Shown in pieces: positions 3,483 to 61,684 of a stretch of DNA of 64,000 bases (the first letter of the stretch is position 1; each line of letters begins with the position of its first letter). Both the position numbers and the translations under genes were made by a program. Origin of the DNA: Eledone cirrhosa (Eukaryota); contig OZ024763.1 in the NCBI GenBank assembly GCA_964016885.1, forward strand, positions 17,670,001 through 17,734,000, in the 5' to 3' direction. Below the pieces are notes generated by a model that saw only the letters and a program-made list of their open reading frames with translations, searched no databases and was not told where the DNA came from.

Positions 3483-3665
3483 ATTGGCAGTATCGGAAGA
3501 GGGTCGGACACCATACCTTCTAGCATAGAGTTACGTCCCTTTACGGTCTGAGTTCAAATCCCGCCGAGGTTAACTTTGCCTTTCATCCTTACGGGGTCGA
3601 TAAAATAAAGTACCAGTAATGTACTGGGTAATTGCTGGCCTTGTGCCAAAAGTAGAAACAATTAT
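3483..3665 (+). mobile_element. tRNA-derived SINE family A
   Basis: A-box-like TGGCAGTATCGG, B-box GAGTTCAAATCCC, central CTTTGCCTTTCATCC...GGGGTCGATAAAATAAAGTACCAG (Meta/MESC-like), tail GGCCTTGTGCCAAAAGTAGAAACAATTA. Confidence 0.85.
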
Positions 3666-3799
3666 TTACATGTCTGTATATTTTAATTATTTAAAAATTA
3701 TTGGTGCTTTAGTGTATCACAAATGCAAGGGTGATTTCTAGTTATTTGATATCCAAAGGGTTAAGTTTTATCCCCTATGTTGTTGGCTACACACTTGAA

Positions 3800-4185: not shown

Positions 4186-4940
4186 TCACTCGATAAACCC
4201 GCCATTGGCTTTGATGACGGCCTCAAGGCGGCCTCGGAACCGGCTACAGGCCTTCATCACTGTCCTCCGACTTAGGCCCCTAAAGGCACTTGTGATCCTG
4301 GCCTTCAGATCGTCTTTCGTGTTGCAGCTAGATCTGTTGGTGCCTCGTTTCACTGCACCCCACACAAAGAAGTCGAGGGGGTTGCAGTCAGGCGAGCTGG
4401 GAGGCCAGATGTCAGGTGAAGTGTGGTCGACGAAGTTCTCTGACAGCCAGGCTTGGGTCTTTCGGCTGGTATGGCAGGGCGCTGAGTCTTGCTGCCACAC
4501 GTACGGCCTACCTGCAGCTACCTGGTTGAACTAGGGCTTTACTACCTCGCTCAGAACGCGGATGTAGCCATCGGTGTTCAGCTTGAGGCCCTCAGGGAGG
4601 AAGTGAGGTGGCATGACGTCACCTTTACTGCTGACGACACCTATGACCAATGTTGTCGCTGGAAACTTTGTCTGCATGACTCTGGGCACATCTTTGGATG
4701 AGACAGCGAGCCACTTGTTGTTCTGGGAGTTGATCTTCTGGTCCTTATTTGTCCTCCCGGCACGGATTCCAAGAACTTTGTGTCTCTTCCACAAATTTGG
4801 AGGTTCAAAATTATTCATAATCAATTATTCTGAAAATAAATAATGGAAATATAGTCACTATTTTTATGAAGACAAGAGTGACAACGGAAGTTAAAAAAAT
4901 TAGCAGTTGAAAATTGCGAACAAATATCGTCCGCACCCTG
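4186..4940 (-). mobile_element. Tc1/mariner superfamily DD37D (maT) transposon, internally deleted
   Basis: WQQDSAPCH...WPPSSPDCNPLDFFVWG, with 37 residues between the last two catalytic Asp. In-frame stop at 4531. One end reads CAGGGTGCGGACG next to TA (4941-42); the other TIR was not found. Confidence 0.9.
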
Positions 4941-13897: not shown

Positions 13898-14495
13898 ATA
13901 ATTGTTTCTACTTTAGGCACAAGGCCAGCAATTATCCCAGTGTATTACTGGTACTTTATATTTATCGACCCCCGTAAGGATGAAAGGCAAAGTTAACCTC
14001 GGCGGGATTTGAACTCAGACCATAAAGGGGCGTAACTCTATGCTGGAAAGCATAGAGTTACTCTACCGGTACTGCCAATTCACCACATAAACTTATAATT
14101 GTTTCTACGTTAGGCACAAGGCCAGCAATTATCCCAGTGTATTACTGGTACTTTATTTTATCGACCCCCGTAAGGATGAAAGGCAAAGTCAACCTCGGCG
14201 GGATTTGAACTCAGACCGTAAAGGGACGTAACTCTATGCTGGAAAGCATGCCGTCCGACCCTCTACCGATACTGCCAATGGTTTCTTATATAAGCACAAT
14301 GCCAGCAATTTTGGGGGAGTGGAAAGTTGATTAAATCAACCCCAGTGTATTACCGGTGCTTTATTTTATCGACCCCTTAAGGATGAAAGGCAAAGTTAAC
14401 CTCGGCGGGATTTGAACTCAGACAGTAAAGGGACGTAACTATATGCTGCAAAGCATGGTGTCTGACGCTCTACCGATACTGCCAATCCACCGCTC
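13898..14495 (-). mobile_element. Three head-to-tail SINE family A copies
   Basis: Tails begin near 13898, 14096 and 14281. Confidence 0.85.
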
Positions 14496-14660
14496 TAATA
14501 TAATAATAATAATGATTTCATCTATTGGCCACAAGGGCCGACATGTAGGGGACAATACAAAGACAGGGACAGTGGGGGGGGGCTTACAATAAGCTCGAGT
14601 AAAATTGCACAATAGCAAATCCAATTTAACAATGAAAATATGAAATAGACTATGTATAAA

Positions 14661-14997
14661 CATCATCATCATCATTTTACGTCCGCTTTTCCCTGCTTGC
14701 AAGGGTGGGACGGGAACTGATTCTGGCTTGATTTCTACAGCTGGATGCCCTTCCTAACACCAACCTCATTTACAGTGAGTGCTGGGTGCTTTTTTATCGT
14801 GGCACCTCCACAACCATTTTACAGTGGAATGATAGGGACCCCAGTCCCTATCATCTCATTTCTACAGCTGAGTAAACTGGAGCAATGTGAAATAAAGTGT
14901 CTTGCTCAAGGAAACAACACATCACCCGGTCTGAGAATTGAACTCACAACCTTTCGATTGCAAGGTAAATGCTCTAACCACTAAGCCATCTGCCTCC
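14661..14997 (-). mobile_element. tRNA-derived SINE family B with RTE-type tail
   Basis: Head TGGCTTAGTGG...GAGTTCAATTC, CCTTGAGCAAGACACTT (CORE/V-like), GGAAGGGCATCCAGC, (GAT)n tail. Confidence 0.85.
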
Positions 14998-15224
14998 AAA
15001 CATAACAAAATAAATTCCCCAATAGGGGTGTATGAACCACCCAGGGGTAACTCAAGTACACCCACCAATCCTGAACCACCCAACACTCCTAGGGCACCCG
15101 GGAGAGCACCTCCTCTCCTCCTCAAATTAACCATCCTACAGTCACATGGTCAGAGTAGGCCGACTCTCACCGGTCATTCTCGCCACATTCATCTGCATAA
15201 ATAGTCTTTGACAACACAATTACT

Positions 15225-15400
15225 GGGCCTTGTCCGGTCGCCGTCGAGAGCTCAGGCATACTTGGACCCCCTACTGCCGAGCTCCTCCGGAAGATTGGAG
15301 CGTCGGTGGCCCGTCTGAGGAAGGTGGCCCTGCGAGGTTGGGTGGCTGTTGCAGCGGGTGTCACTGGCCATTGTCTGCGAGGCGCAGCACTTCTGCTCTC
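15225..15400 (+). mobile_element. C-terminal fragment of an REL-endonuclease non-LTR retrotransposon (CRE-like)
   Basis: GC-rich; PVAVESSGILGPPTAELLRKIGASVARLRK then, after a frameshift, EVGWLLQRVSLAIV. Resembles the 'P.A.ET.G..G...L.QR.S.AI.RGN' tail. Confidence 0.6.
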
Positions 15401-15566
15401 ATGCCCCAGGCCCAAAGCCTAATCACCCTCTCCCTTCACCCCTCTCCTCTCTTCTGCAACACCAGAACTCTTGCCCTGCCCCTCCCTTTCCCGTTCTTTT
15501 TCTTTTATATTTCCCTATCCTTTCTTTCTTTTTGTCCCCCCCCCCTTTTTTTTTCTTACTAAACCA

Positions 15567-15903
15567 ACAGTATATTATCAAATATACTATACATTCATTC
15601 ATACATCGCTATTTCAGAACACTGATACTAATTTCTAATTTTTGCTGGACCGGCAACTGCTCTGTTTAATCAGCTCCTAAACATCACTGGAATTCTATAA
15701 GAATCCAGCTTCTATAGGTCTGGATGGAAGCGAAGGGATATGCAATCTTGATAATCGCTAATGAGCGAGAAACAGCTGTCGGTTGCCTCCCTTTGTTTTT
15801 GCCGAGACTAAGTAAGTGACATAATCACTACTTTAAAACTCATAGCGAATGGTCTTCAAAATGTTTTTAAATAAAGGTACAGTATATTATCAAATATACT
15901 ATA
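15567..15903 (+). mobile_element. Retrozyme/Penelope-pLTR-like short element (312-bp unit plus 25-bp terminal redundancy)
   Basis: Identical ACAGTATATTATCAAATATACTATA at 15567-15591 and 15879-15903 encloses a non-coding unit with the hammerhead and a downstream AATAAA. Confidence 0.6.
15733..15793 (+). ncRNA. Type I hammerhead ribozyme, variant U3-A8 core
   Basis: Stem I GCAATC(15742-47)/GGTTGC(15781-86), extended by AAGGGA/TCCCTT across an internal loop. Core TTGATAA (15748-54), stem II TCGC-taatga-GCGA, GAAA, palindromic stem III ACAGCTGT, GUC triplet. Predicted cleavage after 15780. Confidence 0.75.
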
Positions 15904-16599
15904 TGCCCCCACTCCCTCCCACTGCAAAGTGGACATGTAGGCGCCACAGAAAAAAAGCACCCAGCACTCACTGTAAATGAGGTTGGTGTTGAGAAGGGCA
16001 TCCAGCTGTAGAAATCAAGCCAGAATCAGTTCCCGTCCCACCCTTGCAAGACATGGTCAGCCGACCAGCTATTGCCTACAACAGGACAACCCATCTAACC
16101 CATGCTAGCGTGGAAGAATGGACGTAAAACGGTGATGATGATGATACATTCATAAATAAGGTTTGTTTTTTTCACGAGATGTTAATTGTTGAAATATGGA
16201 ATTAAATGACTTTCTAATCATTATCTAAACATCATCAATGAATGCTGGTAATTTTATTTATGGAATATATCATGTAAACGTAGTTTAATAGAGAAAGGAA
16301 AAGTGAAAATTTAGATTGAGAAGAATGGAATGTAAAATAGGAAAATATATGGGGAAAGGAAGGGAATGGCAAGGACTCTAGTGACACAGAAAAATGGAGG
16401 GAGGCAGAGGATAGGGCTCTGGGCCTTAGGGTGTGGTGGTAAAGGGGCTGTGCCCTGCAGACAAGACTGCTAAAGTATTCCCGTGGACCAATGAATTAAT
16501 TTCTAAGTTCTTCATGAAATTGCCTCCACCACCACCACCATCAATAACAACAAAAAATAATAATTTTGTCCGAAAATTGTTAACCAGGCAAATAAAACA

Positions 16600-17125
16600 G
16601 CTTTGTTGCTGTTGTTGCTGTTGTTATGGTTGTTGTTACTGGTGGTGGTAATTTAGTTGTTGCTGTTATTGTTACTGTTATTGTTGGTGGTAATTTAGTT
16701 GTTGTTGGTGGTGGTGGTGGTGTTGGTGTTGTTGGTAATTTAGTTGTTGTTGTTGTTGTTGTTGTTGTTGGTGTGGGTGTTGGTGTTGTTGGTGGTGGTA
16801 ATTTAGTTGTTGCTGTTGGTGTTGGTGGTGGTGTTGGTGTTGTTGGTGGTGGTAATTTAGTTGTTGCTGTTGTTGTTGTTATTGTTACTGTTGTTGGTGG
16901 TGATGTTATTGTTGTTGCTGTTACTGTTGTTGTTGTTACTGTTGTTGCTGTTGTTGTTGCTGTTGTTGTTACTGTTGTAGTTACTGTTACTGTTGTTGTT
17001 GTTGTTTTTTTGTAGTTATTGTTGTTACTTTACTATTAATGTTGCTATAGTTCTTCTTGTTATTATTGTTGTCGTCATTATCATTATGGTTGCTACTTTA
17101 GTAGTAGTAGTAGTAGTAGTAGTGG
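16600..17125. repeat. (GTT/GGT)n degenerate trinucleotide tract
   Basis: Seen directly in the sequence. Confidence 0.9.
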
Positions 17126-17441
17126 CAAGAGCAACGTGAAATAAAGTGTCTTACTGAAAATTGATCTCTCTGACCACTAAACTCTATGTCCAATATTAAC
17201 CCTTTTGATTCTAAACCCCCTGAAACTGCCCTTGAATCTTTGATACAAAACTGTTCATTTTAAACTATTTTTCCCCATATTAAAACTTATTTTAACCCTT
17301 TTAATACTAAACAACCTGAAAGTGTCCCTGAATTTATGATACAGACCTCGTCATTTTAAAATATTTATATTTACATTAAAATCTTCCATCATATTTTATT
17401 TCAGAAATATTTGTTAAGTTATGTTCTAAATATGAATTTCA

Positions 17442-17965
17442 TCATCATCATCATCATCGTTTAACGTCCATGTTCCACGCTTGCATGGGTTTGGACGGGA
17501 GTTTTCCCACTTGAGGCATAGGACTGTCTGGCGGGTTTTCTACAGCTGGATGCCCTTCCTAACACCAACCACATTTACAGTGTGGGACTGGGAGGTTTTT
17601 ACCGTGTTGCCTACACGGCCACATTACAGCGTGGACTGTGTGTTTTTTGTTGTGACACCTACACGATCTCGTTTGTTTCGGCCTGGATGTTGTGGCACCA
17701 ACATAACTTTACATTGAAAGGGGCGGTGTGGATGGGGTGGGGGTGGTGTGACGGGGGGTGTATTTTATTAGAGATGCCTACTGACTGTAGTAGGTTTTAC
17801 TTTGTATTTAGGTAAGGCGGGTCTTCTCTATTACTGAGTACCACCAAAGATCTCGGTCCAGTGACATTGTCTTGGAGAGGTGTAAGTGTGTGAGGTTGGA
17901 ATTTATCAGATCATCCCAGGTTTTTCTGGGTCTGCCTACTCTGTGGCTACCGTCTATCTTTATTC
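17442..17965 (-). mobile_element. 3' fragment of the RTE LINE family
   Basis: Reverse complement matches 61530-62073 (GRPRKTWDDLINSNLTHLHLSK, 3' UTR, (GAT)n tail). Confidence 0.85.
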
Positions 17966-18619
17966 ATGAAAATTTTAAATTAAATCCATTTATGATACAA
18001 AACTCGTCATTTAAAAATGTTTATATGTGTATTAAAGCTATATTTTAACCCTTTTAATACCAACATTCTCCTGGATATATGATAGAAAACTGGTCATTTT
18101 AAAATGTTTCTACATATATTAAAACTTTCCATCATAATTTTATTTTAGGAAATTTTCTTAAGTAATGTTTTAAATATTGGCTTACTAATGAAAAATTTAG
18201 TTACTCTATTGATGGTCACCCTTAACTCCTTGAGGGAATCATAGGGTTGTCTTATTGATATACAGTCTTTCTAGGGCACTTTTAAAGCCTGGTGGAGCCC
18301 ATCACCTCTCCAGGTGTGAATACAGCAGATTTCTTCCAGAGAATGATAGAGAGAGTGAGAGAAAGTTAGAAAGAGATATAGAGGAAGAATTGACCCCAGT
18401 ACTAGACTGGTACTTTTTTTTATTGACCTTGACAGAATAAAAGGTAAAGATGATCTTAATGCGATTTGAACACTCAGAGAGTAGACAGACAAAACAAACA
18501 CCACAAAGCATTGTATCCAACATTCTAACAATTCGCCACCTGTAATTGCTTTATTAAATTCCTCCAAATTTGGGGGTTATTTTAAAAATTAATCGAAACA
18601 CATAAGCTGAGTATTTAAT

Positions 18620-19173
18620 TAGGAATAGAGTAATGAAAGGGTTATTAACATATGTAGTGTCTTTCATTAGAAATATGGTAATGAAAGGGTTAAAGACATA
18701 GACAGTGTCTTTCATTAGAAATATCGTAATGAAAGGGTTAATGACATAGACAGTGTCTTTCATTAGAAATATGGTAATGAAAGGGTTAATGACATAGACA
18801 GTGTCTTTCATTAGAAATATCGTAATGAAAGGGTTAATGACATAGACAGTGTCTTTCATTAGAAATATTGTAATGAAAGGGTTAATGACATAAACAGTGT
18901 CTTTCATTAGAAATATAGTAATGAAAGGGTTAATGACATAAACAGTGTCTTTCATTAGAAATATAGTAATGAAAAGATTAAAGACATAGACAGTATCTTT
19001 CATTAGAAATATGATAATGAAAGGGTTAATGACATAGACATATTCTTTCTATAGAAATATGGTAATGAAAGGGTTAATGACATAGACAGTGTCTTTCATT
19101 AAAAATATGGTAATGAAAGGGTTAATGACATAGACATTGTCTTTCATTAAAAATATGGTAATGAAAGGGTTAA
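18620..19173. repeat. 48-bp tandem array (~11 copies) containing a MITE end and TTAA
   Basis: Unit GTAATGAAAGGGTTAATGACATAGACAGTGTCTTTCATTAGAAATATG. Confidence 0.92.
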
Positions 19174-19651
19174 GAATGAAATCTGGAAAAAGACCAACCA
19201 AGCATAATTTTTATTATTATTAGTATTATTAATTAATTCGAAATGGACAGAAATTTTTTCTTTCCTTCTTATAATTATTTTCATGTGAGAGGATGGGTGG
19301 GGGCTTAATTTGACAAAAGAAGAAAGAAAGAAAACATGGAGACAGTATTGTATCATGGAATAATTTTTTTATTTAAATGGTTTTTTTTTCAAACCTGGTC
19401 ACATAATTGCATGTTTTCTAACCTCACTTAACACACTTTAGTTAGGTTCAATTACTTATGGTCTCCATTTCTTGACAACATGAATAGAAGAATAGTTTGA
19501 AAGCAGTGGCGGGAGGGGGGAGGGGTGCTATTGGTGGTGGGTGTGTTGGTGATGAGGGATTTGTTGTGATGGTGGTGTTAGTGCTATTTGTGATGATGGT
19601 GGTTGTAATAGTAGTAGAGCAGCAGTAGTAGTAATAACAGTGGTGGTAGTG

Positions 19652-19860
19652 GTAGTTCTCATGGTGTGGTGGCAGGAGTGGTGGTGGTGGTGGTAGTTCT
19701 CATGGTGTGGTGGCAGGAGTGGTGGTGGTGGTGGTAGTTCTCATGGTGTGGTGGCAGGAGTGGTGGTGGTGGTGGTAGTTCTCATGGTGTGGTGGCAGGA
19801 GTGGTGGTGGTGGTGGTAGTTCTCATGGTGTGGTGGCAGGAGTGGTAGTGGTGGTGGTAG
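19652..19860. repeat. 41-bp minisatellite x5
   Basis: GTAGTTCTCATGGTGTGGTGGCAGGAGTGGTGGTGGTGGTG. Confidence 0.9.
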
Positions 19861-19888
19861 TGAGCCGAAACGAATACCGCAAAGTATT

Positions 19889-20860
19889 TTAACCTTTTAA
19901 TGTTCAAACCGGCCAAAACCGGCCAGGATTCTCTACCTTTTTCTGTTGAAACTGGCTGTAACTGGTCACTCATAGATTCGATATTATGTGAGATATTTAT
20001 GTGAGGTAAAGCCTTTACCATGAAAATATAATAGTATATATAGAGTAATGTAAATAGTATGTGAGATATTATGTGAGGTAAAGCCTTTACCATGAAAATA
20101 CAATAGTATATATAGAGTAATGTAAATGTTATGTGAGATATTATGTGAGGTAAAGCCTTTACCATGAAAATACAATAGTATATATAGAGTAATGTAAATG
20201 TTATGTGAGATATTATGTGAGGTAAAGCCTTTACCATGAAAATATAATAGTATATATAGAGTAATGTAAATAGTATGTGAGATATTATGTGAGGTAAAGC
20301 CTTTACCATGAAAATACAATAGTATATATAGAGTAATGTAAATGTTATGTGAGATATTATGTGAGGTAAAGCCTTTACCATGAAAATACAATAGTATATA
20401 TAGAGTAATGTAAATGTTATGTGAGATATTATGTGAGGTAAAGCCTTTACCATGAAAATACAATAGTATATATAGAGTAATGTAAATGTTATGTGAGATA
20501 TTATGTGAGGTAAAGCCTTTACCATGAAAATACAATAGTATATATAGAGTAATGTAAATGTTATGTGAGATATTATGTGAGGTAAAGCCTTTACCATGAA
20601 AATATAATAGTATATATAGAGTAATGTAAATAGTATGTGAGATATTATGTGAGATAAAGCCTTTACCATGAAAATACAATAGTATATATAGAGTAATGTA
20701 AATGTTATGTGAGATATTATGTGAGGTAAAGCCTTTACCATGAAAATACAATAGTATATATAGAGTAATGTAAATGTTATGTGAGATATTATGTGAGGTA
20801 AAGCCTTTACCATGAAAATACAATAGTATATATAGAGTAATGTGAATGCTAAAGAGTTAA
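19889..20860 (+). mobile_element. piggyBac-type MITE with expanded 59-bp array
   Basis: TTAA-CCTTTTAA...AATGCTAAAGAG-TTAA; about 14 internal units. Confidence 0.75.
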
Positions 20861-22371: not shown

Positions 22372-22429
<58 letters not shown>

Positions 22430-22431
<2 letters not shown>

Positions 22432-22690
22432 CAAAGGGATATTTAATTTGTTGGTAATTTAACAAATATATTTATAACAGATTCGAAGCACTCGACAAGT
22501 TTTCTGGAGTATAATATAAATGATATTAATAAATGGAAACTATATTTATAAAACCATATTTATTCTATTATATATATTTCAAGGGCACCAAAACTTTGGT
22601 ACGCTTTCATCAGATAAAATACAAAGTTTGTTTTATAAATATTGACATATCCAGGAATGAGACCTTAACAGTTCAAGTTCCATTTGGATA

Positions 22691-22691
<1 letters not shown>
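22430..22691 (-). mobile_element. Short hammerhead-bearing Penelope-like element in (TA)n
   Basis: About 260 bp of unique AT-rich sequence flanked on both sides by (TA)n; AATAAA lies immediately 3' of the ribozyme. Confidence 0.55.
22561..22621 (-). ncRNA. Type I hammerhead ribozyme
   Basis: Minus strand reads TATTTTAT-CTGATGA-AAGCGTACCAA(agtt)TTGGTGCCCTT-GAAA-TATATA-TA-ATAGAATA. Canonical core, 8-bp stem I, long stem II, palindromic stem III. Confidence 0.85.
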
Positions 22692-28448: not shown

Positions 28449-28527
28449 TTGGGTCGTCAGGTATGAAATTTGTAGAAATGTGTTGTTTTTCCATAAATCG
28501 CTACAAATTTCATACTTGACGACCCAT
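28449..28527. mobile_element. ~80-bp mariner-type mini-MITE / hairpin
   Basis: 26-bp arms TGGGTCGTCAGGTATGAAATTTGTAG / CTACAAATTTCATACTTGACGACCCA with one mismatch, a 25-nt spacer and TA flanks. Confidence 0.7.
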
Positions 28528-29077: not shown

Positions 29078-30121
29078 GTACATACGTACATACATATATA
29101 CAAACATACATAACTACATACAAGCATACACACATACATACAGCCATATATACATACATACACACATACAAATTTATAGACATACATGCACACATACATA
29201 CATACATACATACGTATATACACACACATACACATACATGCATACACATTTACATAGACACATCAATTAATAGACATACATACATGCATACACACATACA
29301 TACATACATATACACACACATGCACATACATACATACATATACACATCAATACATACATGTCTACATATATACATACATCTCTACATACATACATGTATA
29401 CATACATACATACATACATACATACATACACACATTCATACATACATATACATATACACACATACATACATGTATACATACATACATACACACATTCATA
29501 CAAACATACACACATACATACACACATACATACATACACACATACTCATACATACATACACACATACATACACACATACTCATACATACATACACACATA
29601 CATACATACATACATACATACATACATACATACATACATACACACATTCATACATACATATACATATACACACATACATACATGTATACATACATACATA
29701 CACACATTCATACAAACATACACACATACATACATACATACACACATACTCATACATACATACACACATACAGGCATACATACATACATACATACATACA
29801 TACACACATACACACATACACACATTCATACATACGTATACATATACACACATACATACATGTATACATACACACATTCATACAAACATACACACATTCA
29901 TACAAACATACACACATACATACATACACACATACTCATACATACATACATACATACATACATACACACACACATACATACACACACTCATACATACATA
30001 CATACACACATACAGGCATACATACATACATACATATATAAAAAAATATACTCGAAATTAAGAGAAAGAGATACATACATACATACATACATACATACAT
30101 ACATACATACATACATACATA
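29078..30121. repeat. (TACA)n/(CA)n degenerate microsatellite
   Basis: Seen directly in the sequence. Confidence 0.95.
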
Positions 30122-30571
30122 CAAATAAAAACTGCCACCAAATTAAAGCACAACCGGCCTGATATTGTAGTTTGGGACCACACATTGAAAACGTGTTCTG
30201 TTGTGGAGATCAGCTGCCCACTTGATGTAAACGTTGTCAGAAAAATACAGGAGAAGGGGGACATCTACGGACCATTGATGAGGAGCTTACAAATCCAGTA
30301 TCCAAGATACACCTTTAGCTTCATACCCATCATTATTGGTGCTACGGGTTATATACCAACCCGCTTGGACCAAAGTATGACCGAACTTGGATTTGCGGAC
30401 AAAAAGCGCAGCTCCCTAATTCATAGTCTACAAATGGCTGCGATAGCTGGCACCTTCAAAATATGCAAAACATTCTTGCGATTCAAGGGATGACAATTTC
30501 TTTTCTTTTACAACCTTGCCACCAGGAAGGTGGCCGGTCAAAAAAATATACTCGAAATTAAGAGAAAGAGA
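30122..30571 (+). mobile_element. R4/Dong-like non-LTR retrotransposon 3' end (REL endonuclease)
   Basis: Open frame KHNRPDIVVWD...CSVVEISCPLDVNVVRKIQEKGDIYGPL...IPIIIGATG to stop 30493; short 3' UTR; flanked by (TACA)n/(CA)n. Confidence 0.8.
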
Positions 30572-35626: not shown

Positions 35627-35694
<68 letters not shown>

Positions 35695-35697
<3 letters not shown>

Positions 35698-35997
35698 AAT
35701 AAAGTTAAATAAAAGTCAAATGATTAAAATTTAGCTTCGTTTATTACTGCTATATATATTTCAGTGACAGCCATCTTTGGCTGTGACCTCTTCAGGCAGT
35801 TTGAATTAGTGTGGTATAGACAAGTACATATGTTGTTTAGGTGTATAATATTGTCAATACTCTGATATGCCCAGTTCCTTGTTGGGTTGTTAATTCACTG
35901 GGGAACTGGAGTCATATGAATTCAAACAAACGAATTTCAGTGTCAAAGGTCCCCTTCTCCTCTCATTGGTCAGTATACAACCAACATAAACTTAAAA

Positions 35998-36000
<3 letters not shown>
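35695..36000 (-). mobile_element. Short hammerhead-bearing Penelope-like element in (TA)n
   Basis: About 305 bp unique block between two (TA)n tracts; AATAAA directly follows stem I on the minus strand. Confidence 0.55.
35746..35800 (-). ncRNA. Type I hammerhead ribozyme
   Basis: Minus strand reads ACTGC-CTGAAGA-GGTCACAGCC(aaagat)GGCTGTCACT-GAAA-TATATA-TA-GCAGT. Canonical core, 5-bp stem I. Confidence 0.85.
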
Positions 36001-36056
<56 letters not shown>

Positions 36057-36119: not shown

Positions 36120-36368
36120 GTACCAGCGGTTAAACCACTGGGAGTGAAGGACCCCTAGACTTTGTCAGGGCATTCTTCTAGGAGAAGGCAACTCAGGAAA
36201 CTGGGATAACTCCGATATAAAACCTGCGGCTCAGTAGTTACCGATGATGTTGATCTCTTCTTCTTTTCGGGTTATAGCTACTGTCGCTCAGAGAGTGGGA
36301 TTGGCTCAGTGCACAGTCTTTCCTCACTTTAAAAAATATCTTCATGCACAGGAATTGCACGATAGCAT
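36120..36368 (+). mobile_element. RTE 5'UTR-like non-autonomous fragment
   Basis: AGGGCA....TCTAGGAGAAGGCAACTC...ATAAAACC resembles the conserved RTE 5'UTR motif; a degenerate reverse copy lies near 28350-28400. Confidence 0.4.
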
Positions 36369-42310: not shown

Positions 42311-42759
42311 ATGTTGTATTGCTATGCGCTATATCAAAAGATTTTAATAGTCTCTCATTAAGAATTATATTAAAGTATCTGTGATTTGAAATAATAATAA
42401 TTATTTTTATTATTACTATTATTATTATTATTATTATCATTATTATTATTGTTGTTGTTGTTGTTGTTGTTACTATTATTACTCTGTAAATTTTTCGAAA
42501 TTACTATTGAAATTGGAGTTTCATTTTAATCTTATGCTCTTAGTCATTTCTTCCAAGACAGAAGAAATAAAAAAAAAGTGATAATAAAAATAGCAGTAAT
42601 AAAATAAATAAAATTAAAAAGTATTTAAAAAAATGCCAGACAATTAATTAGTTTCATTAAATTAGAGTTTCTTACCAAACTTGAGTCATATTGGAAAATG
42701 TTAGGATTTTAGGAAATTTATAAATGTGTGTGTGTGCTATTAATTTATTCATTTATGTA

Positions 42760-44845: not shown

Positions 44846-45231
44846 CATAAAGTATATGTATCTGTGTGTGTATTATTAATTTATTCATTTGTGAAGCTCA
44901 TTTCATGCTTTATGTTGTATATATATGAAACCTGAGGTACAAGCTATATACAAAGTGTAAGGATATTGAACACTGTTTAACTGAAAGGAGGAAAATTTTC
45001 AGTTCTTAAATTTCTTTTCTTATTTCCCAGATATTAGGAACATCAAACATTCTCTTATAGGCAGAGAATTAGCAGAGTTGTTAGAACGTTGAATAGGGGT
45101 CTTTACGGTGTTTATTCCGGGTCTCTGGGTTCAAATCCTGCTGATCTCAACTTTGCCCTTCATGTTTGATAAAAATAAGTACAAGTCTAGTACTTGGGTT
45201 TATTCTTCTTATATATCTCTTTCTCACTTCC

Positions 45232-48200
45232 ATTCTCTCTCTATCACACTCCCTCTCTATCACATTCTCTCTCTATCACATTCTCTCTCTATCACATTCT
45301 CTCTCTATCACATTCTCTCTCTATCACATTCTCTCTCAATCACATTCTCTCTCAATCACATTCTCTCTCAATCACATTCTCTCTCTATCACATTCTCTCT
45401 CTATCACATTCTCTCTCAATCACATTCTCTCTCAATCACATTCTCTCTCTATCACATTCTCTCTCTATCACATTCTCTCTATCACATTCTCTCTCTATCA
45501 CATTCTCTCTCTATCACATTCTCTCTCTATCACCTTCTCTCTCTATCACACTCTCTCTCTATCACATTCTCTCTCTATCACATTCTCTCTCTATCACATT
45601 CTCTCTCAATCACATTCTCTCTCTATCACATTCTCTCTCTATCACATTCTCTCTCTATCACATTCTCTCAATCACATTCTCTCTCTATCACATTCTCTCT
45701 CTATCACATTCTTTCTCTATCACATTCTCTCTCAATCACTTCTCTTTCTATCACATTCTCTCTCAATCACTTCTCTCTCTATCACATTTTCTCTCTATCA
45801 CATTCTCTCTCTATCACATTCTTTCTCTATCACATTCTTTCTCTATCACATTCTCTCTCAATCACATTCTCTCTCTATCACATTCTCTCTCTGTCACATT
45901 CTCTCTCTATCACATTCTCTCTCTATCACATTCTCTCTCTATCACATTCTCTCTCTATCACATTCTCTCTCTATCACATTCTCTCTCTATCACATTCTCT
46001 CTCTATCACATTCTCTCTCAATCACATTCTCTCTCTATCACATTCTCTCTCTATCACATTCTCTCTATCACATTCTCTCTCTATCACATTCTCTCTCTGT
46101 CACATTCTCTCTATCACATTCTCTCTCTGTCACACTCTCTCTCTATCACATTCTCTCTCTATCACATTCTCTCTCTATCACATTCTTTCTCTTCCATTCT
46201 CTCTATCACATTCTCTCTCTATCACATTCTCTCTCTAACACATTCTCTCTCTATCACATTCTCTCTCTATCACATTCTCTCTCTATCACATTCTCTCTCT
46301 CTATCACATTCTCTCTCTATCACATTCTCTCTCTATCACATTCTCTCCCTATCACATTCTCTCTCTATCACATTGTCTCTCTATCACATTCTCTCTCTAT
46401 CACATTCTCTCTCTATCACATTCTCTCTCTATCACATTCTCTCTCTATCACATTCTCTCTCTATCGCATTCTCTCTCTATCGCATTCTCTCTATCACATT
46501 CTCTCTCTATCACATTCTCTCTCTATCACATTCTCTCTCTATCACATTCTCTCCCTATCACATTCTCTCTCTATCACATTGTCTCTCTATCACATTCTCT
46601 CTCTATCACATTCTCTCTCTATCACATTCTCTCTCTATCACATTCTCTCTCTATCGCATTCTCTCTCTATCACATTCTCTCTATCACATTCTCTCTCTAT
46701 CACATTCTCTCTCTATCACATTCTCTCTCTATCACATTCTCTCTCTATCACATTCTCTCTCTATCACATTCTCTCTATCACATTCTCTCTCTATCACATT
46801 CTCTCTCTATCACATTCTCTCTCTATCACATTCCCTCTCTATCACATTCTCTCTATCACATTCTCTCTCTATCACATTCTCTCTCTATCACATTCTCTCT
46901 ATCACATTCTCTCTCTATCACATTCTCTCTCTATCGCATTCTCTCTCTATCACATTCTCTCTCTATCAGATTCTCTCTCTATCACATTCTCTCTCTATCA
47001 CATTCTCTCTCTATCACATTCTCTCTCTCTCTCACATTCTCTCTCTATCACATTCTCTCTCTATCACATTCTTTCTCTTCCATTCTCTCTATCACATTCT
47101 CTCTCTTCCATTCTCTCTCTATCACATTCTCTCTCTATCACATTCTCTCTCTATCACATTCTCTCTCTATCACATTCTCTCTCTATCACATTCTCTCTCT
47201 ATCACATTCTCTCTCTCTCTCACATTCTCTCTCTATCACATTCTTTCTCTTCCATTCTCTCTATCACATTCTCTCTCTATCACATTCTCTCTATCACATT
47301 CTCTCTCTATCACATTCTCTCTCAATCACATTCTCTTTCTATCACACTCTCTCTCTATCACATTCTCTCTCTATCACATTCTCTCTCTATCACACTCACT
47401 CTCTATCACATTCTCTCTCTATCACATTCTCTCTCTATCACATTCTCTCTCTATCACATTCTCTCTCTATCACATTCTCTCTCTATCACATTCTCTCTCA
47501 ATCACATTCTCTCTCTATCACATTCTCTCTCAATCACATTCTCTCTCAATCACATTCTCTCTCTATCACATTCTCTCTCTATCACATTCTCTCTCAATCA
47601 CATTCTCTCTCAATCACATTCTCTCTCAATCACATTCTCTCTCTATCACATTCTCTCTCTATCACATTCTCTCTATCACATTCTCTCTCTATCACATTCT
47701 CTCTCTATCACATTCTCTCTCTATCACCTTCTCTCTCTATCACACTCTCTCTCTATCACATTCTCTCTCTATCACATTCTCTCTCTATCACATTCTCTCT
47801 CAATCACATTCTCTCTCTATCACATTCTCTCTCTATCACATTCTCTCTCTATCACATTCTCTCAATCACATTCTCTCTCTATCACATTCTCTCTCTATCA
47901 CATTCTCTCTCTATCACATTCTTTCTCTATCACATTCTCTCTCAATCACTTCTCTTTCTATCACATTCTCTCTCAATCACTTCTCTCTCTATCACATTTT
48001 CTCTCTATCACATTCTCTCTCTATCACATTCTTTCTCTATCACATTCTTTCTCTATCACATTCTCTCTCAATCACATTCTCTCTCTATCACATTCTCTCT
48101 CTGTCACATTCTCTCTCTATCACATTCTCTCTCTATCACATTCTCTCTCTATCACATTCTCTCTCTATCACATTCTCTCTCTATCACATTCTCTCTCTAT

Positions 48201-51200
48201 CACATTCTCTCTCTATCACATTCTCTCTCAATCACATTCTCTCTCTATCACATTCTCTCTCTATCACATTCTCTCTATCACATTCTCTCTCTATCACATT
48301 CTCTCTCTGTCACATTCTCTCTATCACATTCTCTCTCTGTCACACTCTCTCTCTATCACATTCTCTCTCTATCACATTCTCTCTCTATCACATTCTTTCT
48401 CTTCCATTCTCTCTATCACATTCTCTCTCTATCACATTCTCTCTATCACATTCTCTCTATCACATTCTCTCTCTAACACATTCTCTCTCTATCACATTCT
48501 CTCTCTATCACATTCTCTCTCTATCACATTCTCTCTCTCTATCACATTCTCTCTCTATCACATTCTCTCTCTATCACATTCTCTCCCTATCACATTCTCT
48601 CTCTATCACATTGTCTCTCTATCACATTCTCTCTCTATCACATTCTCTCTCTATCACATTCTCTCTCTATCACATTCTCTCTCTATCACATTCTCTCTCT
48701 ATCGCATTCTCTCTCTATCGCATTCTCTCTATCACATTCTCTCTCTATCACATTCTCTCTCTATCACATTCTCTCTCTATCACATTCTCTCCCTATCACA
48801 TTCTCTCTCTATCACATTGTCTCTCTATCACATTCTCTCTCTATCACATTCTCTCTCTATCACATTCTCTCTCTATCACATTCTCTCTCTATCGCATTCT
48901 CTCTCTATCGCATTCTCTCTCTATCACATTCTCTCTATCACATTCTCTCTCTATCACATTCTCTCTCTATCACATTCTCTCTCTATCACATTCTCTCTCT
49001 ATCACATTCTCTCTCTATCACATTCTCTCTATCACATTCTCTCTCTATCACATTCTCTCTCTATCACATTCTCTCTCTATCACATTCCCTCTCTATCACA
49101 TTCTCTCTATCACATTCTCTCTCTATCACATTCTCTCTCTATCACATTCTCTCTATCACATTCTCTCTCTATCACATTCTCTCTCTATCGCATTCTCTCT
49201 CTATCACATTCTCTCTCTATCAGATTCTCTCTCTATCACATTCTCTCTCTATCACATTCTCTCTCTATCACATTCTCTCTCTCTCTCACATTCTCTCTCT
49301 ATCACATTCTCTCTCTATCACATTCTTTCTCTTCCATTCTCTCTATCACATTCTCTCTCTTCCATTCTCTCTCTATCACATTCTCTCTCTATCACATTCT
49401 CTCTCTATCACATTCTCTCTCTATCACATTCTCTCTCTATCACATTCTCTCTCTCTCTCACATTCTCTCTCTATCACATTCTTTCTCTTCCATTCTCTCT
49501 ATCACATTCTCTCTCTATCACATTCTCTCTATCACATTCTCTCTCTATCACATTCTCTCTCAATCACATTCTCTTTCTATCACACTCTCTCTCTATCACA
49601 TTCTCTCTCTATCACATTCTCTCTCTATCACACTCACTCTCTATCACATTCTCTCTCTATCACATTCTCTCTCTATCACATTCTCTCTCTATCACATTCT
49701 CTCTCTATCACATTCTCTCTCAATCACATTCTCTCTCTATCACATTCTCTCTCAATCACATTCTCTCTCAATCACATTCTCTCTCTATCACATTCTCTCT
49801 CTATCACATTCTCTCTCAATCACATTCTCTCTCAATCACATTCTCTCTCAATCACATTCTCTCTCTATCACATTCTCTCTCTATCACATTCTCTCTATCA
49901 CATTCTCTCTCTATCACATTCTCTCTCAATCATTCTCTCTCTATCACATTCTCTCTCTATCACATTCTCTCTCTATCACATTCTCTCTCTATCACATTCT
50001 CTCTCTCTCTCACATTCTCTCTCTATCACATTCTCTCTCTATCACATTCTTTCTCTTCCATTCTCTCTATCACATTCTCTCTCTTCCATTCTCTCTCTAT
50101 CACATTCTCTCTCTATCACATTCTCTCTCTATCACATTCTCTCTCTATCACATTCTCTCTCTATCACATTCTCTCTCTCTCTCACATTCTCTCTCTATCA
50201 CATTCTTTCTCTTCCATTCTCTCTATCACATTCTCTCTCTATCACATTCTCTCTATCACATTCTCTCTCTATCACATTCTCTCTCAATCACATTCTCTTT
50301 CTATCACACTCTCTCTCTATCACATTCTCTCTCTATCACATTCTCTCTCTATCACACTCACTCTCTATCACATTCTCTCTCTATCACATTCTCTCTCTAT
50401 CACATTCTCTCTCTATCACATTCTCTCTCTATCACATTCTCTCTCTATCACATTCTCTCTCAATCACATTCTCTCTCTATCACATTCTCTCTCAATCACA
50501 TTCTCTCTCAATCACATTCTCTCTCTATCACATTCTCTCTCTATCACATTCTCTCTCAATCACATTCTCTCTCAATCACATTCTCTCTCAATCACATTCT
50601 CTCTCTATCACATTCTCTCTCTATCACATTCTCTCTATCACATTCTCTCTCTATCACATTCTCTCTCAATCATTCTCTCTCTATCACATTCTCTCTCTAT
50701 CACATTCTCTCTCTATCACATTCTCTCTCTATCACATTCTCTCTCAATCACATTCTCTCTCTATCACATTCTCTCTCTATCACATTCTCTCTCTATCACA
50801 TTCTCTTCTATCACACTCTCTCTCTATCACATTCTCTCTCTATCACATTCTCTCTCTATCACATTCTCTCTCTATCACATTCTTTCTCTATCACATTCTT
50901 TCTCTATCACATTCTCTCTCAATCACATTCTCTCTCTCTCACATTCTCTCTCTATCACATTCTCTCTCTATCACATTCTCTCTCTATCACATTCTCTCTC
51001 TATCACATTCTTTCTCTATCACATTCTCTCTCTATCACATTCTCTCTCTATCACATTCTCTCTCTATCACATTCTTTCTCTATCACATTCTCTCTCTATC
51101 ACATTCTCTCTCTATCACATTCTCTCTCTATCACATTCTCTCTCTATCACATTCTCTCTCAATCACATTCTCTCTCTATCACATTCTCTCTCTATCACAT

Positions 51201-53262
51201 TCTCTCTCTATCACATTCTCTCTCTATCACATTCTCTTTCTATCACATTCTCTCTCTATCACATTCTCTCTCTATCACATTCTCTCTCTATCACATTCTC
51301 TCTCTATCAGATTCTCTCTCTATCACATTCTCTCTCTATCACATTCTCTCTCTATCACATTCTCTCTCTCTCTCACATTCTCTCTGTATCACATTCTCTC
51401 TCTATCACATTCTCTCTCTATCACATTCTTTCTCTTCCATTCTCTCTATCACATTCTCTCTCTTCCATTCTCTCTCTATCACATTCTCTCTCTATCACAT
51501 TCTCTCTCTATCACATTCTCTCTCTATCACATTCTCTCTCTATCACATTCTCTCTCTCTCTCTCACATTCTCTCTCTATCACATTCTTTCTCTTCCATTC
51601 TCTCTATCACATTCTCTCTCTATCACATTCTCTCTATCACATTCTCTCTCTATCACATTCTCTCTCAATCACATTCTCTTTCTATCACACTCTCTCTCTA
51701 TCACATTCTCTCTCTATCACATTCTCTCTCTATCACACTCCCTCTCTATCACATTCTCTATCACATTCTCTCTCTATCACATTCTCTCTCTATCACATTC
51801 TCTCTCTATCACATTCTCTCTCTATCACATTCTCTCTCTATCACATTCTCTCTCTATCACATTCTCTCTCTATCACATTCTCTCTCAATCACATTCTCTC
51901 TCAATCACATTCTCTCTCAATCACATTCTCTCTCTATCACATTCTCTCTCTATCACATTCTCTCTATCACATTCTCTCTCTATCACATTCTCTCTCAATC
52001 ATTCTCTCTCTATCACATTCTCTCTCTATCACATTCTCTCTCTATCACATTCTCTCTCTATCACATTCTCTCTCTATCACATTCTCTCTCAATCACATTC
52101 TCTCTCTATCACATTCTCTCTCTATCACATTCTCTCTCTATCACACTCTCTCTCTATCACATTCTCTCTCTATCACATTCTCTCTCTATCACATTCTCTC
52201 TCTATCACATTCTCTCTCTATCACATTCTTTCTCTATCACATTCTTTCTCTATCACATTCTCTCTCAATCACATTCTCTCTCTCTCACATTCTCTCTCTA
52301 TCACATTCTCTCTCTATCACATTCTCTCTCTATCACATTCTCTCTCTATCACATTCTTTCTCTATCACATTCTCTCTCTATCACATTCTCTCTCTATCAC
52401 ATTCTTTCTCTATCACATTCTCTCTCTATCACATTCTCTCTCTATCACATTCTCTCTCTATCACATTCTCTCTCTATCACATTCTCTCTCTATCACACTC
52501 TCTCTCTATCACATTCTCTCTCTATCACATTCTCTCTCTATCACATTCTCTCTCTATCACATTCTCTCTCTATCACATTCTCTCTCTATCACATTCTCTC
52601 TCTATCACACTCTCTCTCTATCACACTCTCTCTCTATCACATTCTCTCTCAATCACTTCTCTCTCTATCACATTCTCTCTCTATCACATTCTCTCTCTAT
52701 CACATTCTCTCTCTATCACATTCTCTCTCTATCACATTCTCTCTCTATCACACTCTCTCTCTATCACATTCTCTCTCTATCACATTCTCTCTCTATCACA
52801 TTCTCTCTCTATCACATTCTTTCTCTATCACATTCTTTCTCTATCACATTCTCTCTCAATCACATTCTCTCTCTCTCACATTCTCTCTCTATCACATTCT
52901 CTCTCTATCACATTCTCTCTCTATCACATTCTCTCTCTATCACATTCTTTCTCTATCACATTCTCTCTCTATCACATTCTCTCTCTATCACATTCTTTCT
53001 CTATCACATTCTTTCTCTATCACATTCTCTCTCTATCACATTCTCTCTCTATCACATTCTCTCTCAATCACATTCTCTCTCTATCACATTCTCTCTCTAT
53101 CACATTCTCTCTCTATCACATTCTCTCTCTATCACATTCTCTCTCTATCACACTCTCTCTCTATCACATTCTCTCTCTATCACATTCTCTCTCTATCACA
53201 TTCTCTCTCTATCACATTCTCTCTCTATCACATTCTCTCTCTATCACATTCTCTCTCTATCC
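45232..53262. repeat. 8-kb satellite of 16-bp unit ATCACATTCTCTCTCT
   Basis: Period 16 with 14-bp variants; explains the ~2700-aa pseudo-ORFs. Confidence 0.97.
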
Positions 53263-53401
53263 TTCTCTGGAAGAAATTGAATGTGTTCAGTCTTGGAGTG
53301 GGGATGGGTTCCACCAGATTTAAATAAACATGACAACCCAATTAACCCGTGCACACATGGAACATGGATGTTAAATGATGATGATGATGATGATGATATA
53401 T

Positions 53402-59172: not shown

Positions 59173-61684
59173 ATCCTGGAATTCTGTGACGCAAATAACC
59201 TAACTATCTGTAACACTCACTTCAAAAAACGAGGCAATCACCTGATCACCTATAGATGAGGGGAACACGCCAGTCAGATAGATTATATCCTTACCAGAAG
59301 ACGTGACAGAGTGTCTGTTGTAAACACTAAATCCCTCCCCCATGAAGAATGCACCTCCCAACATAGCCTCATAGTTAGCAACCTCATAGTCAGGACAAGA
59401 CGTACTCGACAACGGAGGAGGACTATCCTCAGGAGAAAAATATGGAAGCTAAAAGACCCCACAGCCAGTAATAAATTTAAAAGCATATTACTTGATGCTT
59501 TTGACAATAAGGAAGAGCAATTAGAGTCGTACAATATAGAGGAACAGTGGGAATTCCTGAAAGCTAACCTGCTGAAGGCGGCAGATGATATCTGTGGCTG
59601 AGCAGGCCTATAGGCAGGAGGAGAGTAACGTGGTGGTGTAACAGTAAGGTGGAGGAGTTAATTAAGGCCAAAAAGCAGGCTTGGAAAGTATGTCGGGATG
59701 GGGGAAGTAGAGAAGACTATCAAGTGGCCAGGAGGGAAGCTAGGAGACAAATGTACTTTGCAAGAAGGGAAGCAGAGGGAAGAAAGTTCAAGCATGTTCT
59801 ACAACGCGAGGACCAAAAACGTGAGGTGTTCAGGATTGCTAGGCAATGTGTCAAGGAAAACCATGATATTGTCAGGGAGAAGTGTCTCCTTAATGATGAT
59901 GGTGTACTTGCCATCACTGACATTGATAAGAAGGTAGCTTGGAAGTGTCACTACGAAAGGCAACTAAATGAGGAGAATAAATGGGAGAAAGACAGTCTCC
60001 CCCACATCGATCCAATAGAGGGACCAGTAGTACTAGTTGAAGGTAGTATAATAAGTAAAGCAATCAAAGATATGAAGACGGGTAAGGCGGCTGGGACTTC
60101 GAAAATAGTTGCTGAAATGCCGAAAGCATCTGGAACGGTGGGACACACTATGGTCACCCGGATAGTAAACCAAGTCATACAGAATGGGGTCGTTCCGAAG
60201 GACTGGCGTAGCAGCATCATCATTAACTGCTACAAGGGTAAAGGAGATGCCCTAGATAGGGGTAACTATAGAGGCATTAAATTAATCGACCAGGTCATGA
60301 AGGTCACAGAAAAAGTAATAGCGCAACTAATCAGAGAGAGAATTGATCTAGATGAAATGCAGTTCGGGTTTGTGTCAGGTAAAAATACCACAGTCGCTCT
60401 TTTCATTGTATGACAACTACAGGAGAAGTACCTAGAAGTAAACCCCTATACTTAGCTTTTATTGACTTGGAGAAAGCTTTTGACAGAGTCCCCTGCTCCA
60501 TTATCTGGTGGGCTCTTAGAAAACTAGGTGTTGATGAATGGCTTGTGAAAGCTATACAAGCCATGTATAAAGAAACAGTCAGCAAGGTTATAATTAACAA
60601 CGAATATAGTGAAGAGTTTAGCATAAAAGTTGTTCATCAGGGCTCCGTGCTTAGCCCCCTCCTATTTATTATTGCCCTTCAGGCTATAACAGAGGAGTTC
60701 AAGACCAGCTGCCCATGGGAACTCCTATATGCAGATGATCTAACGCTAATAGCTGAATCAATGGCCGAACTAGAGAAGAAATTCCAAACATGGAAGCATG
60801 GCCTAGAATCAAAAGGCCTTAAAATTAACCTGTCTAAGACTAAAGTTCTAGTTTGTAGGAAGGAAAATAGGGCACCAGTCCCATCTGGGAAATGGCCATG
60901 CTTAGTGTGTAGGAAAGGAGTAGGCAGAAACTCCATTTTATGTCCCAAATGCAAAGTATGGGTGCATAAAAGATGTAGTTGGATCACAGGTAAGCTAACT
61001 AAGAATATATATTTTATATGTGGCCGGTGCTCTGGTGCAATAAGTAGCAGCAAGTGCCCACAGAATACTAGCTCATTCCATTGCACAGATGGTTCTATAG
61101 AAATAGTGGACACCTTCCGTTACCTGGGTGACAAAATCAGCAGTGGTGGAGGGTGCTCTGAAAGTACAGTAGCTAGAGTCAGAACGGGATGGAAAAAGTT
61201 CAGAGAGCTTATACCACTATTGGCCGCTAAAGGGTTTTCTCTAAAAATGAAAGGCAGGCTGTATGATGCCTGCATACAAACAGCAATGTTACATGGCAGT
61301 GAGACCTGGGCATTGTGTGCAGATAATATACGCAGACTGGAAAGGAACGAAGCTTGCATGCTCCGCTGGATGTGTAATAGTATAATATGTGAACGGCAAA
61401 GCATAAGCGAACTAAGAGAGAAATTAGGAATAAGAGGGATCAGATGCTGTTTACTCGAGAGAAGACTACGTTGGTATGGTCACGTGAAGCGCATGAAAGA
61501 TGACAGCTCTATAAAAAAGTGCAGGGCGATAAAAATAGACGGTAGCCACGGAGTAGGCAGACCCAGAAAAACCTGGGACGACTTGATAAATTCCGACCTC
61601 ACACACTTACACCTCTCCAAGACAATCTCACTGGACCGAGATCTTTGGCGCTACACAGTAATACAGAAGACCCGCCTTGCCTAA
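59173..61684 (+). pseudogene. Disrupted APE-RT polyprotein of the RTE LINE
   Basis: Pieces 59311-59601, 59649-60413 and 60410-61684 of the ORF track, separated by stops and frameshifts. Confidence 0.9.

Follow-up and report, generated by a model that had tools for sequence, protein, structure and literature searches.

A type I hammerhead fold in a 5'-truncated, many-copy insert between (TA)n tracts, and its probable origin from a Neptune-like PLE

Two (TA)n tracts bracket an insert of about 300 bases at positions 35694-35999 of the window, which is the whole stretch of 64,000 nucleotides analyzed here. Its minus strand contains all parts of a type I hammerhead fold, arranged around a three-way junction and ending in stem I. 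We consider it probable, at about 80%, that a Neptune-like Penelope-like element (PLE), equipped with an endonuclease, inserted into (TA)n and left only its 3' end, truncated on the 5' side. Cleavage by the intact type I hammerhead is predicted for dimers of the same family only. The parts of the fold and its flanks are as follows.

35796-35800, minus strand: hammerhead stem I, 5' arm ACUGC, pairing with 35750-35746
35789-35795, minus strand: catalytic core CUGAAGA (C3-A9), assigned by sequence
35763-35788, minus strand: stem II, its 10 pairs interrupted by a C-C mismatch (pair 4), and loop II
35759-35762, minus strand: GAAA (G12-A15.1), a descriptor match
35752-35759, minus strand: palindromic stem III AUAUAUAU, a predicted dimer helix of 8 bp
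35751, minus strand: N17, an A; predicted cut 3' of A17, between 35751 and 35750
35746-35750, minus strand: hammerhead stem I, 3' arm GCAGU, pairing with the ACUGC arm
35740-35745, minus strand: AAUAAA, a putative polyadenylation signal judged by its letters only
35632-35693, no strand: (TA)n tract on the 3' side of the insert, tandem TA
36000-36051, no strand: (TA)n tract on the 5' side of the insert, tandem TA
22429-22691, minus strand: comparison element of a second family (the 22561 element), with the same palindrome and the same C-C at stem II pair 4

The hammerhead folds of the window

Minimum-energy prediction of the insert yields stems I and II directly (z = -2.4 to -2.5). The C-C mismatch of stem II lies at 35785/35766, and a purine-pyrimidine pair is present at 10.1-11.1, as G-U in the copy with the 35795 core and as G-C in 41-43% of the family depth. 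The position of N17 and of the cut site follows from hammerhead numbering. The first-pass annotation, which had described a hammerhead with a CUGAAGA core, GAAA, the AUAUAUAU palindrome and (TA)n flanks, is confirmed for the minus strand.

Two of the 22 CUGANGA cores in the window complete a type I fold, those at 35795 and 22613, as compared to none in 300 dinucleotide shuffles (0/150 for the whole window and 0/150 in blocks of 300 nt). The density of folds is thus above that of shuffled sequence, as had been expected, and we conclude that the hammerhead fold at 35795 is real and not the product of chance. The hammerhead models of Rfam gave no match to the insert at E<=10, where four chance matches from other families were obtained; a match to Rfam is not a defining trait of the hammerhead fold itself. 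For the whole window, the best 150 of 328 Rfam matches were of low complexity only, and nearly all of them to miRNA models.

The second hammerhead lies in a long hairpin at 22530-22645 (minus strand), in which an 8x6 internal loop separates stem I (8 bp) from a distal helix of 13 bp, and has A-U at 10.1-11.1. The sole BLASTN match above noise between the two elements is a 24-nt stretch covering GAAA and the palindrome, and the elements are therefore unrelated in sequence. This agrees with the earlier statements that stems I and II differ from those of the 22561 ribozyme and that families share one dimerisation palindrome, here two unrelated families with an identical 8-nt palindrome. An AAUAAA placed after stem I, also part of the architecture first described, is found in the insert (35745-35740); in the 22561 element the motif overlaps stem I and is not 3' of it.

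The count of three intact folds did not hold, since strict and relaxed scans for type I and type III folds recovered no third fold in the window. Two candidates were considered and rejected: the CUGACGA at 28460, which sits in an inverted repeat and lacks a GAAA-closed stem II, and the site at 42600, where no fold was found. The region at 28451-28525 (minus strand) is an inverted repeat of about 25 nt that ends in CUGACGA beside a short TA run and is not a complete hammerhead; it runs into a repeat common to 36143-36270 (68% over 128 nt).

Repetition, truncation and insertion site

Four of the 19 public runs listed (X1, X5, X7 and X17) were aligned to 35690-36004. No RNA run appeared in the list, which carries no information about expression. 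Run X1 placed 1,913 contigs on the 315 bases of the insert region and run X17 placed 6,857 of 12.5 million reads on the same 315 bases. Both numbers are beyond any single locus, so the insert belongs to a many-copy family, in line with the high repetition previously proposed. As a rough estimate, the copies may number in the thousands, summed depth not being a copy number. Coverage in X5 (22 contigs) and X7 (1 contig) is insufficient to place the insert family in other organisms. The summed contig depth peaks at the ribozyme with about 916,000 and is 14,000-20,000 near 35960, with a drop of about 50-fold towards 35974. This gradient fits 5' truncation and is inflated by the divergence of the window copy itself. 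The X17 read ends at 35728 and 35807 were considered as element ends and rejected, as they fall on AATT and were taken to be restriction cuts of a RAD library.

Among the 40 of 67 variants listed, 2 fell on the 51 constrained positions of the ribozyme versus 29 on the 173 upstream positions (Fisher p=0.02), a contrast that is inflated by several upstream variants private to the window copy. The commonest ribozyme variant, at 35763 (41-43% of depth), replaces the G-U at 10.1-11.1 with a canonical G-C pair. None of these 40 of 67 variants fell in the core, stem I, the palindrome or the C-C pair, and common ribozyme variants are unlikely among the remaining 27 because depth is highest at the ribozyme. 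At 35801, 35802 and 35763, variants occur at comparable frequencies (41-49%), an indication of two subfamilies. With GG at 35801-35802, stem I would gain four pairs beyond an internal loop.

The body of the insert and its terminal piece are delimited as follows.

35696-35974, minus strand: insert body, probably the 3' end (pLTR/3' UTR) of a many-copy element, 5'-truncated at 35974
35973-35999, plus strand: optional 27-nt 3' tail of the family, inverted at the truncated 5' end and overlapping the body by 2 nt

The sequence of other copies continues beyond 35974 in 594 reads of X17, 10 contigs of X1 and 2 contigs of X5, and the window copy is therefore truncated at this position. A joint from 35696 to 35973 on opposite strands was observed in 205 reads with 15 different starts. 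The segment 35973-35999 is thus the 3' tail of the family and not upstream body, since it is joined directly to 35696 on the opposite strand. In the window copy, the 27-nt tail is missing from the 3' end and lies inverted at the 5' end. Further truncation points, 35912 (8 reads) and 35800 (3 reads), also connect to the tail, in both cases with extra letters in between. The insert family thereby displays 5' truncation, an inverted 5' piece and an optional 3' tail, a combination known from PLEs, for which passages of PMC8557442 and PMC3846280 describe inverted 5'-truncated copies and an optional tail of 30-40 bp that is often present at one end only. The same passages describe microsatellites and (TA)n as PLE targets, and both window families lie between (TA)n tracts (one locus per family).

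A 27-nt stretch that can occupy both ends in inverted orientation, abutting TA, would also be expected of a miniature DNA transposon bounded by terminal inverted repeats of 27 nt, with TA target sites and a captured hammerhead. We regard such an origin as very improbable: the window copy has no repeat at its 3' end, most reads at 35974 continue into the body (the 594 mentioned above) and not into the repeat, and the depth maximum is at the ribozyme and not at the termini.

No open reading frame was seen in the insert body 35696-35974, as would be the case if the insert were a solo, non-autonomous PLE-derived element (a non-LTR retrozyme or SINE-like) that never had an ORF of its own, was mobilised in trans and used its ribozyme to make small circular RNAs. 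Animal retrozymes are, in the parts of 10.64898/2026.07.22.740005 and PMC7229834 that concern them, type I hammerhead repeats, some of them solo monomers, derived from pLTRs. Several observations make this origin unlikely. No joint connects the 3' end with a start farther upstream on the same strand at monomer length, within the limit set by short reads, and the only backward steps on the same strand span 65-70 nt, in 4-7 reads. The window holds a single copy and no tandem monomers of 150-450 nt, other copies reach beyond 35974, and the variable 5' truncation with an inverted tail fits the direct insertion of a PLE.

If the insert is a truncated PLE, the GIY-YIG nuclease of the parent element would have nicked (TA)n, and reverse transcription from the RNA 3' end would have passed the uncut ribozyme and halted after about 280 nt. 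An inverted piece of the 3' tail would then have served to resolve the second end, and a relic lacking a promoter would have remained. As the window copy spans the cut site, its template was presumably uncut or rejoined there, which argues against priming from a cleaved AU end for this copy.

Other elements were also observed in the window. A SINE-like interspersed repeat of about 185 nt is present at 3483-3666 and in at least 10 other places, in many copies with 87-94% identity. A broken non-LTR reverse transcriptase at 59260-61684 (plus strand; Pfam RVT_1, E=2e-23), which we take to be RTE-like, contains an insert similar to a PHD finger (E=8e-5, narrowly below the cut-off), and its 3' ends recur across the window. 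The frame of 143 aa at 30062-30493 (plus strand) resembles the restriction-like endonuclease end of a non-LTR element, presumably Dong/R4-like, and has no Pfam match. A DDE transposase fragment at 4186-4530 (minus strand) is Tc1/mariner-like (Pfam DDE_3, E=8e-4, under the cut-off). Tandem repeats make up 55% of the window, and an 8-kb satellite at 45200-53300 has a period of about 16 nt and an almost G-free plus strand (GC skew near -1). In its repeat content, the window seems to resemble an octopus genome.

Dimer geometry and look-alikes with a PLE-type ORF

Self-cleavage after A17 is predicted only for the same-family dimer. According to nearest-neighbour energies, calculated without tertiary terms, closure of stem III in the monomer costs 3.4 kcal/mol (35795 fold), and homodimers are better than monomers by 5.8 kcal/mol in the insert family and by 6.8 kcal/mol in the second family. 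The trait of PLE dimers, a short palindromic stem III that is unstable as a monomer, is thus present in AUAUAUAU. Two ribozymes in a tandem transcript of the parent element would exchange strands, with the AUAUAUAU palindromes forming the 8-bp stem III; the stem I arms would pair across copies, the cut would follow A17 and the element RNA would be trimmed.

In the double hammerhead, the strand continues from U16.1 through N17 into stem I, and stem I is therefore intermolecular. A mixed dimer of the two families has 0 and 1 stem I pairs versus 5 or 8 in the homodimers, and is 4.4 kcal/mol worse than two monomers. Because the mixed stem I is nearly pairless, the shared palindrome does not allow complementation between these two families, and the proposal that different copies complement each other in trans was not upheld. 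The same 8-nt palindromes in two families and the abundance of (TA)n, with 483 run ends in the window, would suit either cross-family complementation or the cutting of host (AU)n transcripts in trans. We find such trans action scarcely credible. In addition to the unfavourable mixed dimer, the duplex of the bare palindrome reaches just -3.2 kcal/mol. A host substrate would consist of (AU)n followed by the family arm, and among the 483 TA-run ends only the element itself has this form, its own arm competing in cis; the suggestion that host transcripts are cut is accordingly weak.

It is unproven that the palindrome mimics a (TA)n target. The core itself fixes A15.1 and U16.1, and an AU palindrome is therefore among the simplest solutions. 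None of six metagenome hammerheads with an AU palindrome had (TA)n of more than 5 units within 400 nt, the downstream flanks being short in three of the six. Assemblies tend to break at microsatellites.

These look-alikes were obtained with a general hammerhead pattern that demanded the AU palindrome and matched at least 118 loci in metagenome contigs, with eight palindromic type I folds among the 118 loci listed. The same pattern matched 107 loci in viral contigs, which serve as a chance control since none passed the strict fold filter and one weak candidate passed the looser one. Six of the eight metagenome folds have the AU palindrome and the other two (L167 and L224) have ACAUGU, which appeared unasked; as AU was demanded by the pattern, the share of AU palindromes among all hammerheads cannot be derived from these loci. 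L167 and L224 are type I folds with an extra base after A9, from loci fetched for another match. A pattern specific for the insert family found no locus in the metagenome contigs.

Two look-alikes (L138 and L186) have their fold at a distance of about 200-350 nt downstream of the end of a PLE-type ORF with a CX2-5CxxC linker and a GIY-YIG-type domain. The domain of L138 matches Pfam GIY-YIG at E=7.6e-7, and L186, which has no Pfam match, shows 41% and 28% identity to L138 by BLASTP. The upstream part of these ORFs we take to be an RT thumb, from its motifs. The arrangement reads as the Neptune/Nematis layout, and two further loci (L132 and L122) have an inverted hammerhead copy just upstream. 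Since the ORF of the insert family itself was not reached, we infer its probable Neptune-like clade from L138 and L186.

Several points count against a PLE origin. Neither the family-specific metagenome pattern nor a tblastn search of the window with the L138 and L186 proteins, which returned nothing under E=0.35, connected an RT or GIY-YIG sequence to the family. The insert has no extra base between A9 and 10.1 and has G-U at 10.1-11.1. Finally, published minimal PLE hammerheads are described in passages of PMC4209133 as slow even as dimers.

A possible subtype and the relation to known systems

In the 22561 element, eight bases immediately 5' of stem I can pair at every position with the apex of stem II (chance about 0.002, post hoc) and lie in the 5' strand of the internal loop closed by the 13-bp helix. 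In the insert family, about eight extra bases just 3' of stem I, at 35745, were observed in 462 reads of X17 and 11 contigs of X1. Seven of them are complementary to loop II in X17 (chance about 0.003), and the X1 consensus differs at two of the seven. The window copy is without these bases. A loop II pseudoknot is the natural prediction from this complementarity, but an identical sequence could also arise by templated inversion of short segments next to a hairpin.

We tentatively suggest, as a possibility and not as the favored expectation, that two unrelated PLE families use a distinct hammerhead subtype. It would be defined by an empty position 9.1, a kink that C-C introduces at stem II pair 4, and Watson-Crick pairing of loop II with the strand next to stem I in a pseudoknot (5' and 8 bp in the 22561 family; 3' and 7 bp in the insert subfamily). 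The pseudoknot would speed cleavage, and its 3' form would join partner molecules, so that a universal AU palindrome would be policed by family-specific locks. The in vitro rates of PLE hammerheads are low. Should cleavage prove fast owing to the predicted pseudoknot and the C-C kink, the two families would lend themselves better to tests of what PLE hammerheads do. Natural controls are at hand in subfamilies that have the predicted pseudoknot or lack it, and in forms that carry G-U or G-C. Together, the fold and the inverted tail can serve as a marker by which short, unlabelled repeats of a TA-rich genome are classified.

A search of the literature for the hammerhead ribozyme together with octopus gave, among the papers listed, none on this topic by title or start of the abstract. 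Judging by its title, a 2017 paper by Lunse, Weinberg and Breaker reportedly concerns small hammerhead variants tied to PLEs that cleave as dimers. The passages of the O. vulgaris repeat annotation in PMC13282606 list Penelope families and do not contain the word ribozyme. According to passages of PMC4209133, hammerheads in PLE repeats occur across animals in thousands per genome, mostly solo and in several unrelated families; their helix III is palindromic, their activity is low, and a dimer model is put forward. Parts of PMC6765202, PMC6155905, PMC7229834, PMC6431247, PMC10085705 and 10.64898/2026.07.22.740005 agree with this picture and also describe a helix between loops I and II in other hammerheads. 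The palindromic stem III, dimer cleavage, unrelated families within a genome and thousands of copies are thus already published for PLE hammerheads, and the present analysis adds one host genome and two families to the known link. The C·C at stem II pair 4 and the lack of a base after A9, both in both families, and the predicted loop II pseudoknot may be new, although the architecture may be among the variants of the 2017 paper or in the supplements of PMC4209133.

The window folds resemble those in the passages of Cervera and de la Pena 2014 (PMC4209133) in being of type I, with a 5-bp helix I, a long helix II, a palindromic 15.2-16.2/loop 3, mostly solo truncated copies, unrelated families and a dimer model. 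An irregularity of helix II is reported there for the D. virilis PLE hammerhead. Unlike the minimal consensus in these passages, the window folds have no extra base between A9 and 10.1 (0/2, as compared to 8/8 metagenome folds among the loci listed), and stem II of the metagenome folds is shifted by one base relative to that of the window folds. They further differ from the forms described there in the pair at 10.1-11.1 (G-U/G-C, and A-U in the second family) and in the C-C at pair 4 of both window families. A loop II pseudoknot is predicted for the window families, whereas PLE forms are usually without tertiary contacts in the part of PMC6155905 that treats them.

Non-LTR retrozymes, as described in sections of PMC7229834 and 10.64898/2026.07.22.740005, share with the insert a non-coding body of about 300 nt, low GC and a type I hammerhead, and the hammerheads of those in amphibians need dimers. 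Unlike them, the insert is not tandem and has variable 5' ends and an inverted tail. Naiads likewise target (TA)n and are, in the sections describing them, without canonical hammerheads. There is agreement in structure and insertion with EN+ PLEs of the Neptune clade, for which passages of Craig et al. 2021 (PMC8557442) and Arkhipova et al. 2013 (PMC3846280) report a microsatellite target, 5' truncation, an inverted 5' piece, an optional 3' tail of about 30 nt and a hammerhead near the 3' end, all of which have counterparts in the insert.
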